64,000 nucleotides of DNA from a virus. Taxonomy: Duplodnaviria; Caudoviricetes. A model generated the notes under the pieces. The model ran no database searches, was not told the origin of the DNA, and saw nothing but the letters and a program-made list of their open reading frames with translations. Shown here piece by piece: positions 2,493 through 48,155 of this stretch. The first letter of the stretch is position 1; every line of letters starts with the position of its first letter. The DNA lies in the IMG/VR virus record IMGVR_UViG_3300025723_000013; one strand, 5' to 3'. Made by a program: the position numbers and the translations under genes.

Positions 2493-3779
2493 TTACTGCT
2501 GTTTGTCAAATAATGACTGCTCTGCTCTCAGCCAGGAGGGTTCATCACCCAACTGAGCAGTTTGACTGGGCACTGCCACTGAAGCGCCATTAAACGCCTG
2601 CGTTTGTATAGTGGGCAGTTCGTGTATCTGCTGATTCAATATTTTCAGTTCCAGCAATATCTGACTCAGCAACTCGATCTGTGTTTGCCCTTCAAAGTTA
2701 GAAGTATCCTGAGAGTTCAGTGCAGGTGTGTTCTGCATGCTGCCCGTGACCAAAGGAATCGTGCCCAAGATGTTGGACGTGGTACTGATGCTGGCCGGAG
2801 CAACTGTGTTCAGCTGGGTGGCTATTTGCAATCGACCTGTGCCGTCGCTGATGATTCTGCGTGACACTGATCCAGGATCTGTGGCACCTATGGGCATAAC
2901 ACCGGCGGCAGCGCTACCCACAGATCCTGCAGCCTGACCAGCGATGTTGACCACGTTGATGCCCAGCTGAGACGAGGCCTGGCTTACTGCGGCGGCACCG
3001 ATCTGCTGCAAGTTTATGTTTAGGTTGGAAAAAGGTTGCGAGCGCAAATAGTAGACCAGCTGGCCTGCTGTGGTAGCTGTCAATCTAATAAAACGTGTCA
3101 AGCAGGGAAACACATAGTTGGTGTTGGCGGCCAAGGTGCTGGTGGCCAGGCTGGTACCTAGAGAATATCCTAGGATCGCGTTAAAGCTGATGCCGTCATT
3201 GGATCCTGCCACAGTGCCCACAAATCCCTGCGTGGTTATGGTGATGCTTTGATAACCTGTGGTGTCCACTATATAGTTGCCGTTGACTGCGATTACAGGA
3301 GTGGTTACAGCAATGGGAGCATCGCTCGGTATGGCAGCGCCCTGTGCATCGCTCTTGGGTGGGTTCTGCAGGTTCACATACAGGGGTGTGTTATTGGCAG
3401 CATCCATGGCCAAGTTTAGTCGATCCGCTGGCTCAGTGGACACAGCGCTATTGCCCAATATGGTCAAACTCACTGTGCCTGTAATGGCCTGCACATTGTA
3501 TCGCAGCCAGCGCACGTCACTCTTGACTTGATAGAGACCCACAGTTTCAATTTGTGTTTTGAGTTCTACTGCGGATAAATTGGTGATCAGCACCGGAGAC
3601 CAATACACACTGTCAGCTGAACCTTCTGCGGTAATAACGCCATTGAATGTGGATCCAGTCACTTGCCAAGTGGTAGCTGCGTAGCCAGTTGTGTCAATTC
3701 TTGAGCCGGCTCCAGAGGAAGACACAGTGCCTGAATACAAAATTGCACGATCTACAAATGTATTGCCGATAAAACTCAT
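2493..3779 (-). CDS. Hypothetical protein, probable virion/tail structural
   Basis: 428 aa beta-rich ORF, two similar DTTGY..T modules, in structural cluster. Confidence 0.7.
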   Translation of the reverse strand: MSFIGNTFVDRAILYSGTVSSSGAGSRIDTTGYAATTWQVTGSTFNGVITAEGSADSVYWSPVLITNLSAVELKTQIETVGLYQVKSDVRWLRYNVQAITGTVSLTILGNSAVSTEPADRLNLAMDAANNTPLYVNLQNPPKSDAQGAAIPSDAPIAVTTPVIAVNGNYIVDTTGYQSITITTQGFVGTVAGSNDGISFNAILGYSLGTSLATSTLAANTNYVFPCLTRFIRLTATTAGQLVYYLRSQPFSNLNINLQQIGAAAVSQASSQLGINVVNIAGQAAGSVGSAAAGVMPIGATDPGSVSRRIISDGTGRLQIATQLNTVAPASISTTSNILGTIPLVTGSMQNTPALNSQDTSNFEGQTQIELLSQILLELKILNQQIHELPTIQTQAFNGASVAVPSQTAQLGDEPSWLRAEQSLFDKQQ

Positions 3780-4096
3780 CAGGTGACCTCAACTGTGGAC
3801 ACTATCACATCGACTGAGGCAGTGGGCGTAACTGTTACAAAGTTGTTTTGTGCCACTATCAATCGGCTGGCGTCTACCACGTTCAAACTGCTGCCCACCG
3901 GTATGATAACATTGGTCACGATGCTGGCCGTGACAGTGCCGCTGGTCAAAGTCACTGTGGCCACTGCATTGGTGCTGGAAGTGTTAGACAGCAGCAATCC
4001 TATCACAGTGGCCTGAATGCCTGTACTGACAGGGTTATAAACCACTGTGGCAGTTGTTATATTGGGAGACAGATAGTTTCTGTAATTGATGGGCAT
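3779..4096 (-). CDS. Small T/V/S-rich structural protein
   Basis: 105 aa ORF abutting downstream gene. Confidence 0.7.
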   Translation of the reverse strand: MPINYRNYLSPNITTATVVYNPVSTGIQATVIGLLLSNTSSTNAVATVTLTSGTVTASIVTNVIIPVGSSLNVVDASRLIVAQNNFVTVTPTASVDVIVSTVEVT

Positions 4097-20700: not shown

Positions 20701-21866
20701 CCCAATCCCCATCCGTATCCAGCAGACGGCGGAGACATGATATTGCTCCAAATCAAGCTGCCAGTAGAACTGTATTTTGATACTATTTGCCCAGTATAAG
20801 AACCGTTGCTGCTGCTTATATAAAGATTATTATTGGAATCACAAACAATATCATAGCCGGTAAGTGGACCAAATACACTGTTATCCACTGTTCCTGTTTG
20901 CCACAGTATATTACCATATGGTCCAAATTTAGCCAGAAACTGTACCAGTCCTGCCGTTGTATCTGTTACCAAACCGGTGCAATAAACATTGCCTTGAATG
21001 TCGGTGGTTATACCATATTGGGAATACTGCGAGCTGGTAGTTGATAAATTTTGTTGCCAATACAGCGATCCGGAACTGGTGTATCGAGCTAGATACAAAG
21101 AGTTATTGCTCAACAAAGACCCAACCACATAAATGTTGCCAAAACAGTCAGTGGCAATGTCACTTATGACTGCGCCTGTTACAGTTTCAGTCTGCCATTG
21201 CAAATTACCATTGAGATCAGTGGCCACCACAAAATAGGTACCAGTGCCGGTTGATTCACTAATGGTAAAATAAAGATTGGTTTGATTGACAGTGATGGCA
21301 TCGCCGGTTTTGACATAACCATCAATGTTGTTGTAACTGTTTTGCCAAACTACCTGACCAGCAGGATTGAATTTGACGAGGTTTACTGTGCCTTGCGTTA
21401 TATCTCCGCCAACCACATAAACATTACCGTAATTGTCGTAGGTCACACTGGATGCATACACACGATCGGTATCTGTGACCAAATCACCATATTCCGTTAT
21501 CCAGTAATTGCCACTGTTGGCAGAAGAAGTCAGTGTGATATTTCCCAAGCTGTTGATAGCGCCGGGCACAGTTAATACCCCGCTGCTGCCATTGAAGATC
21601 CATGTGTTTGAGGCCGTGGTTAGATGGTTAACGGCTGTTATTTTCAGTCCAGCTGCGGTGTCATTGATGGTGGAGCCTTGAGGCAGAATCAGCTGCCCAG
21701 TGGCAGTAAGGACCACGGTGTAAGTTCCATTGGCCAATCCATAATTGAGTGTTTGACCATTCAGCGCGGCAAAATTGCTGTTGATCTTGGAAAAAGCCAA
21801 TCTAAGAACATCGCCATTGTGCGAATTTGGGCTGGTACCGGTGTTGACATATTGAAACTGAATCAT
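14703..21866 (-). CDS. Giant tail fibre/adhesin (beta-propeller, collagen-like and glycine-rich domains)
   Basis: 2387 aa; repeated D..GN.Y..G / KY.S.G.L.WQ propeller blades, GFVGS/GYTGS tract, several GALxVxGGxGIGG modules, C-terminal GGGGGGG-rich domain. Confidence 0.85.
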   Translation of the reverse strand: MIQFQYVNTGTSPNSHNGDVLRLAFSKINSNFAALNGQTLNYGLANGTYTVVLTATGQLILPQGSTINDTAAGLKITAVNHLTTASNTWIFNGSSGVLTVPGAINSLGNITLTSSANSGNYWITEYGDLVTDTDRVYASSVTYDNYGNVYVVGGDITQGTVNLVKFNPAGQVVWQNSYNNIDGYVKTGDAITVNQTNLYFTISESTGTGTYFVVATDLNGNLQWQTETVTGAVISDIATDCFGNIYVVGSLLSNNSLYLARYTSSGSLYWQQNLSTTSSQYSQYGITTDIQGNVYCTGLVTDTTAGLVQFLAKFGPYGNILWQTGTVDNSVFGPLTGYDIVCDSNNNLYISSSNGSYTGQIVSKYSSTGSLIWSNIMSPPSAGYGWGLGVDSQNNLYASGIMRAGLNTYIAVTKYSSTGSFVFSRLLGSTATNTNAVSQIPNTGPGQGHSVISVFGNSLTVVGVTRVNNTNNTSTVWKNNHYKALISQFPTDGSLIGHYGRFTYTDATLTNVVSSYASNLTVYATTLTVIVTTATLTTSTLFSSPGAFATALTVANGTGTSILSTVGSNTWQFNQNGSTQFPNYTFPATAGTPGQYLYTDGLGNLGWSNSTVNFQNINVDLLPAVDTTYNLGSPSLQWKSLYVSTNTVFIGRVPLTINTATNTISVGTGTSTQNVITSNATGTVQLPGVLAFADGSTQVTAWLGTGTLIANAVNSTYAAYATTATNIINGVSFINGTVNQVYVSANTGSVILTTPQAIATSSNVTFAGINATTVTSRLVTSTSLVVSSTSTFGGPIIFSSANITATGTNQATAAAIVGDNTYIVAGTGGVVLPVPVVGREISITNATASSIYVYPSTGTNIENSAANIPTLLPSYATMAVVAKTTSNWWTVTPVYNASTGITITQSANGTVTWALNTATLMTNAVNATTSSFATTSGYAQSFNTSTLVTNAVSAQIATTASNFNTATLVTNSVNAVNIAGGAAGSIPYQIAGGLTGFISIGSTGTLLQSNGITATWITTSSLGVLGYTGSKGTTGTNGYTGSVGFVGSIGFVGSVGYTGSVGFVGSQGTTGTIGYTGSVGFVGSIGYTGSFGYTGSVGFVGSIGFVGSVGYTGSVGFVGSQGASGTGTGYVGSIGYTGSSGSFTNPFASILTITNVTVTTSTNTGALQVTGGVGVGGGLYVGGTVTSTNHIVIGTGAAASTTTGALQVVGGAGIGGGLYVGGVITATNVYVNGYAVSTGSGSGGFASTSSLIAGTYTVTLSLSNGLLTVPNNIASSANTASIQLQSTYNGTTSSWTFSNNGTTGTITFPDSTVQSTAWNPSSAVVISSTLSSTSTITGALQVVGGVGVGGGLYVGGVITATNVYVNGYAVSTGTFNTATLVAIAVSATSITANTAITVYALTVTNTATLNGPLIFSSANITATGTNQATAALITADNTYVTTGTGGIILPTAVVGREISITNATAGSVNVYPAVGASIENSPVNTATSLPSYATLAIVAKTTSNWWTVTPVYSSSTGITITQSANGTVTWALNTASVTLQAVTGYGSSTNNAITISNTTNSTSTTTGALIVTGGHSVGSNMYVGGILNVVNYQSNTTSSQGALNVGNYVNSYTGQIATFAGSDTTYSNITLINNNSTNTAYASYEVANNGFNNYMEMGVNSTNYSYSAAGYANNSFSLPGASFLESVGSDLTIGTYNNNNVHFVLNANSSTSDILLLSTSTTAAVQILSTLTSISSTTGALTVAGGVGIGNGLYVVGTVTSTNHVINGTSATTSTTTGALTVAGGAGIGGGLVVGGVITATNVYVNGYAVSTSTGGSTFGPLTGDVTTPTAGSNTTTVTQISGGLTKFSNSLVDTYTFNNQPQITFASVSGTNVTLSSTAYPTGWSYTSGQYNVVFANPNTSSTYYKMTLTNASSTATLNYAVPGMTTATVGYLFGSAISGPSSVDNYIPVSGSSTATGANCMIWDIKSSFANVTIQGIAPPPTNSSFLVINNYSSGYTINLARISPTYGATINSGTPNGVTILAGGSAFLVYDYNQNLNGPGWILISAQNYQLSNSVSIYNTPGTYNYNWPATWNGGRVIMCGGGGGGGSGAKWSTTATVYGGNGGNSACWSMLDLGVSNSNQTTATIIVGYGGPGATQVSGVSSGTGYTGSVGGDSSFSWQGITILAAGGAGGKGGVIGGSQSTQTAATSGGNLALGLAGGTSTAIGGGTAGTGTSVANVPNSGAPYLGGAGGAGGGFVNGVGDNGGNGGVPAVYYSGSPSGASSTTAILIASGGLTTNVNSGLAYGSGGYGPNGNGTYPVVTGNTPTYIQTTYGLIGGGGGGGGGAYTSTSGTFGNQNIIGGAAGGYGAGGGGGGASRSNSTQAAGGSGPGGAGSPGIVIVITY

Positions 21867-45242: not shown

Positions 45243-45308
45243 GGTTGACGGCGATCCGGCCCTAGTGTACATTGCACACACAGACACACACGCTGCAAGG
45301 AGACCCAC

Positions 45309-45365
45309 ATGCACACTTGGCCCTCGGATCAGGCGCTCGAGGCCTATCTGCCAGAACACGCTTAA
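45309..45365 (+). CDS. Possible 18-aa microprotein MHTWPSDQALEAYLPEHA
   Basis: TTGACG-N17-TACATT promoter, AAGGAG SD, stop 10 nt before tRNA. Confidence 0.4.
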   Translation: MHTWPSDQALEAYLPEHA

Positions 45366-45374
45366 CACACCAAT

Positions 45375-45449
45375 GGGATCGTAGCTCAGAGGTAGAGCAA
45401 TCGGCTTTTAACCGATTGGTCGAGAGTTCGAATCTCTCCGGTCCTACCA
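45375..45449 (+). tRNA. trnK: tRNA-Lys(UUU)
   Basis: GGGATCG/CGGTCCT acceptor, TAGCTCAG D-arm, ATCGG-CTTTTAA-CCGAT anticodon arm, GTTCGAATC T-loop, encoded CCA. Confidence 0.95.
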
Positions 45450-45483: not shown

Positions 45484-45912
45484 ATGGCCTACATGAATCA
45501 AGAAAGAAAAGCACAGGTTGCACCACTGGTCAAGGCCGTGTTAACACGCTACGGCGTGAAGGGGTCGCTGTCGGTTCGCAACCATATGACACTGTGCCTT
45601 AACATCAAGGCGGGCACGATTGATTTCATTGACAATTTCATCAGCACGGATCAGGCACGGGGTCATGCCCATCCAATGACAGCCGAAACCATCCAGCGCC
45701 TCCGCAACGAGCAGAGCCTAGACGTTAACCCGTACTGGTTCCATGAGCACTTTTCAGATCGCGCTAGAGCATTCCTAAGCGATGTGATGACTGCGCTAAA
45801 GGGTGCGGGTTGGTACGACAAATCGGATGCGCACACGGACCACTTTGACACCGCTTACTATATTAGCATAAGCATTGGTGACTGGAAAAAGCCTTACCAG
45901 CTGATCGCGTAA
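45484..45912 (+). CDS. Conserved phage protein
   Basis: DVNPYW...WYDKSDAHTDHFDTAYYISISIGDWKKPY. Confidence 0.8.
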   Translation: MAYMNQERKAQVAPLVKAVLTRYGVKGSLSVRNHMTLCLNIKAGTIDFIDNFISTDQARGHAHPMTAETIQRLRNEQSLDVNPYWFHEHFSDRARAFLSDVMTALKGAGWYDKSDAHTDHFDTAYYISISIGDWKKPYQLIA

Positions 45913-45976
45913 GTGACTGAATCTTGAGGCAAAACTGGTGCTTGACTATTCCATCACCAGAGACTATAATGATCGC

Positions 45977-46146
45977 ATATTGGCACGTGAGGGCGTCACC
46001 CTCTATTCTGGTCCGGAAGATGAGAAGCCCGTGACAGGGCAGGACCTTACCATTTGGTGCAAATGGCCTTGGCAACAGGACAGTCTTCCCAGGTCGAGAA
46101 GCGGGTGGAAGGTGGCAACACTACAATTACCGCCGCTGGGAAGAAG
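45977..46146 (+). ncRNA. Candidate structured ncRNA with two GCAA tetraloops
   Basis: Own promoter TTGACT(45942)-N17-TATAAT(45965); seven stems; no SD-led ORF. Confidence 0.6.
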
Positions 46147-46163
46147 CTATTAGGAAAAAACCT

Positions 46164-46213
46164 CAAATACCCCGCTGTGTGGGGTTGACAATGCCCACAC
46201 AGCGTGGTACAAT
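46164..46213 (+). promoter_or_regulatory. Motif-fused sigma70 promoter with -35 box inside an 11-bp inverted repeat
   Basis: CGCTGTGTGGG(46173-83) G-TTGACA-ATG CCCACACAGCG(46194-204); TACAAT at 46208. Confidence 0.8.
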
Positions 46214-46281
46214 GCTGTTATCAAATCTAGCCCAGAGGAGAGCCCTAGATTATAACTAGTTGTAGTCAGGGAGAAAACACC

Positions 46282-46563
46282 ATGTATCTTGATGAAAGCA
46301 CTGTGGAAAAAATGCGTGAGCAGTTGGCGCACAGAGACGAGATCATGACCGATGCACTGCGCAAGCGCGACGCGCACCGGCTCATGGCCCAGGAGTATCG
46401 AGATCAGCTGGGTCAAGCACGGGTGCAGATCTCACAGCTGGAGGCACAGATGCAATCCCAGGCCGCGCAGCTGGATCAGCTGCGCACAGACAATCGGGAT
46501 TTGGAAGCGTTCAATCGCATGCTGCAGAAGATGATACGACGTATGGCTCACAAGGACAAATAA
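46282..46563 (+). CDS. Coiled-coil protein
   Basis: 93 aa heptad pattern, GGGAG SD. Confidence 0.7.
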   Translation: MYLDESTVEKMREQLAHRDEIMTDALRKRDAHRLMAQEYRDQLGQARVQISQLEAQMQSQAAQLDQLRTDNRDLEAFNRMLQKMIRRMAHKDK

Positions 46564-48002: not shown

Positions 48003-48155
48003 ATGACACACACTAGACCCCAATGCGGCCGTTGCAGTCAGCTGGAGGACCGCATACAACAGCTGAGGGACGCGCTCAAGGCCATACAGGCCCACAGCCA
48101 AAGCACCCCGCAGATTCGAGAGCTGGCCACCCGATCTCTACGGGGCATCATTTAG
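48003..48155 (+). CDS. Small hypothetical protein MTHTRPQCGRC...
   Basis: 50 aa ORF, weak SD. Confidence 0.45.
   Translation: MTHTRPQCGRCSQLEDRIQQLRDALKAIQAHSQSTPQIRELATRSLRGII

Follow-up and report, generated by a model that had tools for sequence, protein, structure and literature searches.

The 64,000-nt stretch of phage DNA analysed here (hereafter the window; Duplodnaviria, Caudoviricetes; IMG/VR record IMGVR_UViG_3300025723_000013) carries at 45983–46148, on the plus strand, what comparison of homologous sequences identifies as the gene for a non-coding structured RNA of a previously unclassified large-phage family. Judged from its surroundings in 30 loci, it is a single-copy RNA gene, on the plus strand in the window, that behaves as an extra member of phage tRNA arrays. 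We put at about 0.6 the probability of the fuller reading, namely that this is a stable, trans-acting RNA family that travels with phage tRNA genes, has a fold of six helices (P1–P6), docks onto a host partner and, in this phage, has its own early promoter. A first-pass annotation made from the window alone had proposed an unrecognised, promoter-driven structured RNA at this place; in the homologues, the stems are indeed kept by compensatory changes.

Location of the element in an early island

The window encodes collagen-repeat and Mtd_N tail-fibre proteins, and its other matches are to PHROG families only. Seven public contigs, one of them 284 kb long, are 100% identical to the window over the locus, and are thus uninformative for comparison. 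The element is situated in an island at ~42–54 kb in which G+C is raised to 55–59%. We counted ~12 near-consensus sigma-70 promoters between 42 and 52 kb, all on the plus strand. Such sites (−35 TTGACA, −10 TATAAT, spacer of 16–18 bp) number 10 within 4 kb, compared with 2.0 expected. The usual cassette of the island consists of a promoter, an AC-rich leader, AAGGAG and a short ORF. Two features flank the element:

45942–45970 (+): sigma-70-type promoter TTGACT-N17-TATAAT; predicted start near A45977
46173–46204 (+): perfect 11-bp hairpin, arms CGCTGTGTGGG and CCCACACAGCG; its 10-nt loop contains the −35 box of a second promoter

The upstream promoter had been pointed out in the first-pass annotation, and is present with 11 of 12 positions matching the consensus. 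It is the sole promoter of the island that is not followed by AAGGAG or GGAG with an ATG inside 75 nt. The earlier statement that no SD-led ORF follows it is correct. Transcription would start near A45977, ~6 nt 5ʹ of the conserved edge of the element. Among the copies of the family, only that of the window has a near-consensus promoter.

The second promoter (46185–46213) lies downstream of the element, and the region around the hairpin (46160–46210) is the most structured spot in the island, with a folding z-score of −5.1 that none of 300 shuffles reached. This hairpin is not part of the conserved RNA family. It could act as a 3ʹ barrier for the transcript, or as an operator; since it has no U-tract, a role as terminator is a supposition. 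A canonical terminator is missing from the interval between 46148 and the gene that follows, and the element could therefore have been processed out of a longer transcript.

The spacer downstream of the element also holds a copy of a dispersed motif, AAATACCCCGCT, that occurs 11 times in the window with at most one mismatch (0.14 expected), every time on the plus strand (46163–46184, and at 21573, 30703, 31004, 31508, 41522, 41965, 48166, 48703, 49227 and 51129). The copies in the early island are intergenic, after genes and ahead of promoters. An uncalled 49-codon ATG ORF of coiled-coil-like sequence (48004–48152) ends in a TAG 11 nt before one of them, and the open frame across the RNA element likewise stops 10 nt ahead of its own copy. 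Further downstream, the leader of a 93-aa gene forms, in its minimum free energy (MFE) fold, a hairpin (46245–46275) that pairs the AGGG of the SD AGGGAG and may confer translational control on that gene.

Homologues and their distribution

As a test for coding, the translated ~70–71-codon frame that is open across the element was compared by phmmer with 1.84 billion protein representatives. Besides itself, it matched three “proteins” of 79, 136 and 83 aa, which have ~45 residues in common and unrelated N-termini. The DNA of their contigs is 75–84% identical to the window over ~130 nt, with indels that are not multiples of 3 and with visible compensations in stems. Because the shared stretch overlies the element, the indels are non-triplet and the stems are compensated, we regard the three “proteins” as spurious ORF calls over a conserved RNA.

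Homologues were also sought by using conserved single-stranded blocks as exact patterns. An initial pattern taken from a stem, GCCCGTGACAGGGCAGGACC, had no matches, as this stem covaries. The pattern CTGGTCCGGARGATGAGAAG matched five loci in IMG/VR and 28 in metagenomes, 24 of the latter genuine, together with two chance matches in prokaryote genomes. A pattern for a second block recovered five additional IMG/VR copies in which the first block varied, for a total of 10 IMG/VR and 24 metagenome copies from the pattern scans. Apart from the window copy, the family counts 29 distinct full copies, on contigs from large phages that have not been cultivated. The loci L183, L193, L201/L206/L207 (a Planctomycetota MAG) and L208 (Corynebacterium) were rejected as chance matches to the 20-mer only. 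Six further loci with the pattern TTTGGTGCAAANNGCGNTGGC were false positives; they have no match to R1, our covariance model of the family, and encode the protein motif FGAKGDG, which we take to mark pectate-lyase-type phage tail proteins.

A scan of 185,579 prokaryote genomes with one 20-mer gave no genuine copy, and BLAST gave none in 50,697 GenBank phage records or in 5,426 E. coli genomes; blastn showed no rRNA likeness of the element. Relatives were also collected by way of the flanking genes, 80 loci for the upstream 142-aa protein (matches of at most 60%) and 80 for an AAA protein (at most 64%). Searches of these relatives (1.4 Mb) with blastn, nhmmer, tblastn and R1 returned no copy, and R1 found none in 162 loci from relatives or in five large contigs related to the window phage. 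Synteny is the wrong route to homologues here because the early island is mosaic.

On each of five carrier contigs of 80–355 kb, one of them complete with terminal repeats, R1 found exactly one copy, and we found no paralogue of the element within the window. Most of the contigs are 21–79% complete, so calls of gene absence are unreliable for profiling of partner proteins. On the evidence of these searches, the family is rare and known from uncultivated phages only.

One contig, L211, has a second, partial R1 match on the minus strand (3741–3824; 25.7 bits, E 4e-6). It covers the 5ʹ domain only, with P1, a P2-like hairpin, the block GAUGAGAAG and P3, and without GGUCC or GGACC. It may represent a paralogue that has degenerated, or a module able to exist separately.

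A covarying fold with a conserved unpaired core

The window copy is 68–85% identical to other members (BLASTN E 2e-37 to L170/L171) and aligns over its full length with the 29 other copies. It scores 181 bits against R1, whose seed includes it. Every pair of P1–P6 can form in it, with the helices in order, and it has all the blocks of the family: the GGUCC loop, GAUGAGAAG, AGGACCUUAC, UUUGGNGNAAA, UGGCAAY and ACCRCCG. Its parts are as follows:

45983–46148 (+): conserved structured RNA element, 166 nt, from 5ʹ edge (RR)ACGUG to 3ʹ edge AAGCW
45989–93/45999–46003 (+): P1 hairpin, 5 bp, GAGGG/CCCTC
46006–09/46015–18 (+): P2 hairpin, 4 bp; its loop is the invariant GGUCC (46010–46014)
46019–46026 (+): purine-rich junction GAUGAGAA, the family block just named second; its last G opens P3
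46027–30/46037–40 (+): P3 hairpin, 4 bp, including GCCC/GGGC
46042–46046 (+): invariant GGACC, complementary to the P2 loop GGUCC in 30/30 copies
46050–55/46061–66 (+): P4 hairpin, 6–7 bp, with the conserved loop GGNGN
46067–69/46077–79 (+): P5 hairpin, 3 bp plus G-C 46071/46076 closing GCAA; family loop UGGCAAY
46084–46144 (+): P6, long-range helix of 9 bp + 2 bp + 4 bp; its 3ʹ strand is continuous and it encloses P7
46113–46120 (+): P7 stub capped by GCAA, inserted in P6

We aligned the 30 distinct full-length copies (about 152–243 nt) with MAFFT, without structural guidance, and curated a structure of 46 pairs comprising P1, P2, GGUCC/GGACC, P3, P4, P5, the three-part P6 and the base of P7. 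In this alignment, 98.8% of 1365 cells are standard pairs. There are changes on both sides in 28 of the 46 pairs (208 cells), with up to six types at single pairs; because many copies are close relatives (Infernal effective sequence number 1.61), independent compensatory events are fewer than these cell counts imply. The covariation score is 0.454, compared with 0.141 in shuffles, and was reached by none of 500. When the 3ʹ partners are slid by 1–3 columns, 43–54% of cells are paired and only 5–12 pairs show double changes. With the first 25 copies as input, RNAalifold independently predicted 44 pairs, of which 25 are compensatory. The strand is also indicated, since ~100 G-U cells would turn into A-C mismatches on the opposite strand.

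The support is spread over the molecule. All five pairs of P1 have changes on both sides, with 99.3% of cells paired, and P3 has double changes in three of four pairs, up to six pair types and 100% of cells paired. In P2, the pair at alignment columns 26/38 appears as CG, UA, GU and GC, and that at 28/36 as CG and GC. P4 covaries at 74/88 (four pair types) and 75/87 (three), and both Gs of its loop are invariant. At P5, the pair 92/100 is UA in 16 copies and CG in 13, and the pair 94/99 is GU, GC or AU. P6, built from 46084–92/46136–44, then CG/CG, then GCGG/CCGC, has double changes in eight of nine outer pairs, and its inner part GYGG/CCRC covaries. By this comparative evidence, all six helices P1–P6 are supported by covariation. 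Most copies have a long P7, in many cases with UGAUG/UGAUG internal loops, and its base covaries; since it is shortened to a stub in the window and missing in L170 and L211, it is dispensable.

The inverted repeats listed in the first-pass annotation are all in place, and six of the seven stem regions covary. It had drawn GGTCC/GGACC as a nested stem enclosing GCCC/GGGC, but GGTCC is the loop of P2, a hairpin that had been missed. P2 (columns 26–29/35–38) is absent from the MFE fold, yet it is supported by covariation. A local hairpin that MFE and RNAalifold folds place here instead (columns 27–33/39–45) has no covariation and breaks at variable positions, and P2 is preferred over it. The annotation had also noted two GCAA tetraloops. 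That of the P7 stub is present in the window; the other corresponds, in the family as a whole, to a 7-nt loop with the conserved sequence UGGCAAY, or else to G[GCRA]U with a bulged U.

Because GGUCC is the loop of P2, any pairing of GGUCC with GGACC would be a pseudoknot or a contact between molecules. Such pairing, within one molecule or between molecules, is plausible, and is unproven because both sequences are invariant in all copies. A scan for copies with an altered GGACC returned known members only. As an intramolecular pseudoknot, the pairing would be sterically tight, with linkers of zero length on either side of the loop.

The unpaired part of the RNA is more conserved than the paired part (86% in unpaired core columns compared with 80%). 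In the junction GAUGAGAA, the last five letters are invariant and the others at least 90% conserved among the 30 copies. In total, 25 of 75 unpaired core columns are invariant, which with the ten positions of GGUCC/GGACC makes ~35 junction and loop nucleotides, although gathering the copies by exact-match patterns makes the bait blocks look more invariant than they are; variants of the first block did turn up with the second and third patterns, for which it was not required. Higher conservation of an unpaired core marks, at the level of sequence, an RNA that has a tertiary fold or a ligand that is conserved.

Folding energy is ordinary, with MFE z-scores of −0.97 for 45975–46160 and −1.25 for 45977–46150 (35 of 300 shuffles fold as well). 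The 5ʹ half of the element scores −0.41 and the 3ʹ domain (46084–46144) −2.4, and 30% of island windows of the same size have z ≤ −0.97. Since the z-scores of the element and of its 5ʹ half are not significant, we dropped thermodynamic significance as a criterion.

The element is unlikely to be a small protein gene or a leader

Could the element encode a small protein? The ~71-codon frame 45938–46153 is open in the window, has GAGG 8 nt upstream of its GTG and was called by the gene caller in one assembly (P0003); a 41-aa ORF starts at 46063. However, the long frame is interrupted by stops in 27 of the 30 copies, and the other two frames in 29 and 30 of them. The N-termini of its “homologous proteins” are unrelated and the indels shift the frame. 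Codon scores are −0.03 for the open frame and +0.06 for the 41-aa ORF, compared with 0.22–0.89 in 15 neighbouring genes. No homologue was found for the 41-aa ORF, whose ATG is hidden within P4, and no gene is called in the 370-nt gap in seven independent assemblies. The first-pass annotation had considered that the region might be translated, with synonymous variation that breaks the stems; we see the opposite, stems kept and every frame broken. These comparisons essentially refute a coding function, which we regard as effectively excluded and to which we attach next to no probability.

The element might instead belong to the 93-aa early gene at 46282–46563, as a long 5ʹ leader, a spacer between tandem promoters or a cis-regulator. 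The missing terminator between the two would fit this, as would the position of the promoter 46185–46213 between them and the folding of the leader 45977–46285 (z −2.9). Against it, the gene has its own promoter and SD, and in its sole relative (58% identity) the corresponding place holds a promoter and an SD-led 50-aa gene, with nothing that resembles the element. Furthermore, the 29 homologues precede tRNAs or unrelated ORFs. A cis-acting leader is thus very improbable, and largely refuted by genomic context. We favour a trans-acting RNA gene because downstream neighbours vary, each of the five carrier contigs searched has one copy and the unpaired core is the more conserved part.

Association with tRNA genes

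The tRNA genes found across the 30 loci are all on the strand of the element (140, with none on the opposite strand). Same-strand tRNAs are present in 18 loci, 12 loci have a tRNA within 150 nt, and 12 have none at all. The spacing between element and tRNA is 0–29 nt in ten loci. A tRNA-Asp, tRNA-Cys, tRNA-Tyr, tRNA-Asn or CUA-anticodon tRNA can follow 5–29 nt past the conserved 3ʹ AAGCA. On the other side, in L210 and L213, the encoded CCA of a tRNA directly abuts the conserved 5ʹ (RR)ACGUG, with 0 nt between them.

In L210 and L213, this spacing requires a cut exactly at the boundary. One explanation for such a cut is that the element is a new self-cleaving or otherwise catalytic RNA, which cuts the polycistronic transcript at its own edge and frees the neighbouring tRNAs or itself. 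Its invariant junction nucleotides and probable pseudoknot are typical of small ribozymes. However, the ribozyme models of Rfam give no match at E ≤ 10, excision from an array is already accounted for by host RNase P and RNase E/Z, and the window copy, which has a promoter of its own, lacks a flanking tRNA that it could free. A cleavage site, moreover, is not readable from the sequence of the element. We consider catalysis unlikely, and favour a stable RNA that is excised by the enzymes of its host.

In the window, the only tRNA is a same-strand tRNA-Lys(UUU) (45375–45449), 533 nt upstream of the element with one gene between them. This tRNA lies in a promoter cassette of its own (45245–45449; TTGACG-17-TACATT, AC-rich leader, AAGGAG, ATG), in which an 18-codon ORF stops just ahead of the tRNA, as though the tRNA took the place of the gene in the standard cassette. 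Certain phage tRNAs counter defences that cleave tRNA-Lys, such as PrrC and PARIS, and a lone early tRNA-Lys(UUU) brings these to mind. In L184, the tRNA 18 nt downstream of the RNA copy (2465–2539) has a CUA anticodon (an amber suppressor, reported by ARAGORN as “Pyl”), which hints at stop-codon recoding in that phage.

In another subgroup, the RNA lies between two small unannotated ORFs. In L198 (8497–8838 and 9048–9281), and with the same genes in L181, L182, L188, L192 and L203, these are a conserved 113-aa ORF, whose TAA abuts the 5ʹ edge of the RNA, and a 77-aa ORF, whose ATG is 11–12 nt past the 3ʹ edge. Neither of the two is matched in Pfam. Pfam searches of proteins that flank members gave nothing informative, and no conserved partner protein adjoins the element across members.

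Comparison with known RNAs

The RNA class had not been recognised in the first-pass annotation, and a search with Infernal against Rfam 15 assigned no family even at E ≤ 10; in 45850–46300, that threshold gave four noise matches of 9–15 bits. At gathering scores, the scan of the window gave tRNA-Lys only, and nine member loci at E ≤ 1 gave tRNAs and noise only. The classes without a match are tRNA, tmRNA, RNase P, SRP, 6S, Y RNA/YrlA, T-box, GOLLD, ROOL, pRNA, hammerhead, twister, pistol, hatchet and HDV-like. Neither ARAGORN nor RF00005 called a tRNA overlapping the element, in the window or in any member. A full-text search of the literature found no description of the family.

In its setting, the element resembles the species 1 and species 2 RNAs of phage T4 (rnaC and rnaD), which are non-tRNA stable RNAs that adjoin same-strand tRNA genes. 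These are 119–139 nt long and lie in the tRNA cluster of the phage, as annotated in AF158101. To our knowledge, their function has not been established. With filters off, R1 found nothing significant on rnaC or rnaD in T4 68000–75000 (best score 12.6 bits, inside segB). Also, rnaC ends in a tRNA-like T-arm, whereas the element family has none.

The pRNA of phi29-type phages is a phage RNA of ~120–174 nt, made from an early promoter, with complementary loops that pair between molecules. It belongs to small podoviruses with protein-primed replication, is encoded at the genome end beside packaging genes, and its loop pairs covary between phages. In contrast, the complementary sequences of the element are invariant, and Rfam gives no match; the likeness is one of analogy.

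GOLLD and ROOL are ornate, covariation-supported phage and prophage RNAs, often near tRNA islands, of unknown function (PMC12286853). They have pseudoknots and no known protein partner, and cryo-EM has shown them to form homo-oligomeric cages (PMC12286853). They are much longer (500–800+ nt, compared with about 152–243 nt in the element family), and their Rfam models are unmatched. Their cages have been seen by cryo-EM, whereas for the element assembly would be conjectured from the complementarity of GGUCC and GGACC alone.

By analogy, the element could be a self-assembling or scaffold RNA that works through intermolecular GGUCC-GGACC contacts, in the manner of phi29 pRNA or of the ROOL and GOLLD cages, or else a 6S-like or CsrB-like protein sponge. 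The complementarity of GGUCC and GGACC is perfect, neither sequence varies in any copy, and an intramolecular pseudoknot of the two would have no linker nucleotides on either side of the P2 loop. ROOL and GOLLD, too, are homo-oligomeric phage RNAs by tRNA islands (PMC12286853). However, the invariance of the two sequences means that no pairing of them has covariation support, the family is far smaller than ROOL and GOLLD and does not match them in Rfam, and no partner protein is conserved beside it. We regard a scaffold or sponge as a minor possibility, and a trans-acting RNA that docks onto a host partner as the better reading.

Loops of the UGG type are known to bind the 3ʹ-CCA of tRNA, as in the T-box antiterminator bulge (UGGN) and L15 of RNase P (GGU). 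The element exposes GG or UGG in the P4 loop GGNGN, the P5 loop UGGCAAY and the P6/P7 junction GUGGARG. We mention this likeness as a lead: the Rfam models of T-box and RNase P are unmatched, and the GUGGARG junction is missing in L170 and L211, which lack P7.

A recent survey by Fremin and Bhatt (2023) listed 10,006 candidate structured RNAs from IMG/VR, that is, from the same data source and on the same kind of evidence as ours (PMC10690425). Among these candidates are some that lie over or beside predicted tRNAs; of the 27 copies of DNAVirus_1850, for instance, one overlaps a tRNA-Asp. The main text of that paper neither names nor characterises a family like the element, which may be one of the 10,006 unnamed candidates.

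Discussion

How might an RNA of this kind be made and used? We propose that copies borne in arrays would be co-transcribed with the tRNAs and excised by the enzymes of tRNA maturation, with RNase P acting at the downstream tRNA and 3ʹ-end processing acting on the upstream tRNA. In the window phage, the RNA would be made early from its own host-type promoter, and the transcript would then either be shortened as far as the stable P6 helix or end at the downstream hairpin. We infer the early timing from the sigma-70 promoter and the position in a host-takeover island.

The invariant loops and junctions would build a precise tertiary fold that docks in trans onto a slowly evolving partner. That partner would most likely be a host tRNA or translation component: tRNA ends or elbows, tRNA-processing enzymes, or defence enzymes that target tRNA. 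A partner in the tRNA and translation machinery is the most likely one on grounds of genomic association, to be read together with the 12 of 30 loci that have no tRNA. A more specific proposal, that these phage RNAs form a new functional class with a direct action on the host tRNA or translation system, is one that we advance tentatively and at less than even odds. Such an RNA might capture tRNA ends or elbows, serve as decoy or inhibitor of tRNA-cleaving nucleases, or be a ribozyme that matures the array.

Our analysis holds a lesson of method, in that folding-energy z-scores missed the element entirely, and spurious overlapping ORF calls revealed its family. Because the RNA is small, with minimal forms of 152–155 nt that lack P7, it lends itself to probing of its structure, to crystallography or cryo-EM, and to pull-downs and genetics.

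The usual view of phage tRNA arrays is that of tRNA-only kits for codon usage or counter-defence. The family described here, by its sequence conservation and location, indicates that a second, unrelated and strongly constrained RNA can take a slot in these arrays, and ~35 positions in its junctions and loops do not vary among phages that have unrelated genes beside it. One phage appears to have moved this RNA under a dedicated, early, host-type promoter within a host-takeover island. The situation is comparable to that of the species 1 and 2 RNAs of T4, and of GOLLD and ROOL. If the target proves to be tRNA ends, RNase P, the ribosome or anticodon nucleases, the family would represent a new form of phage control over host translation or defence.
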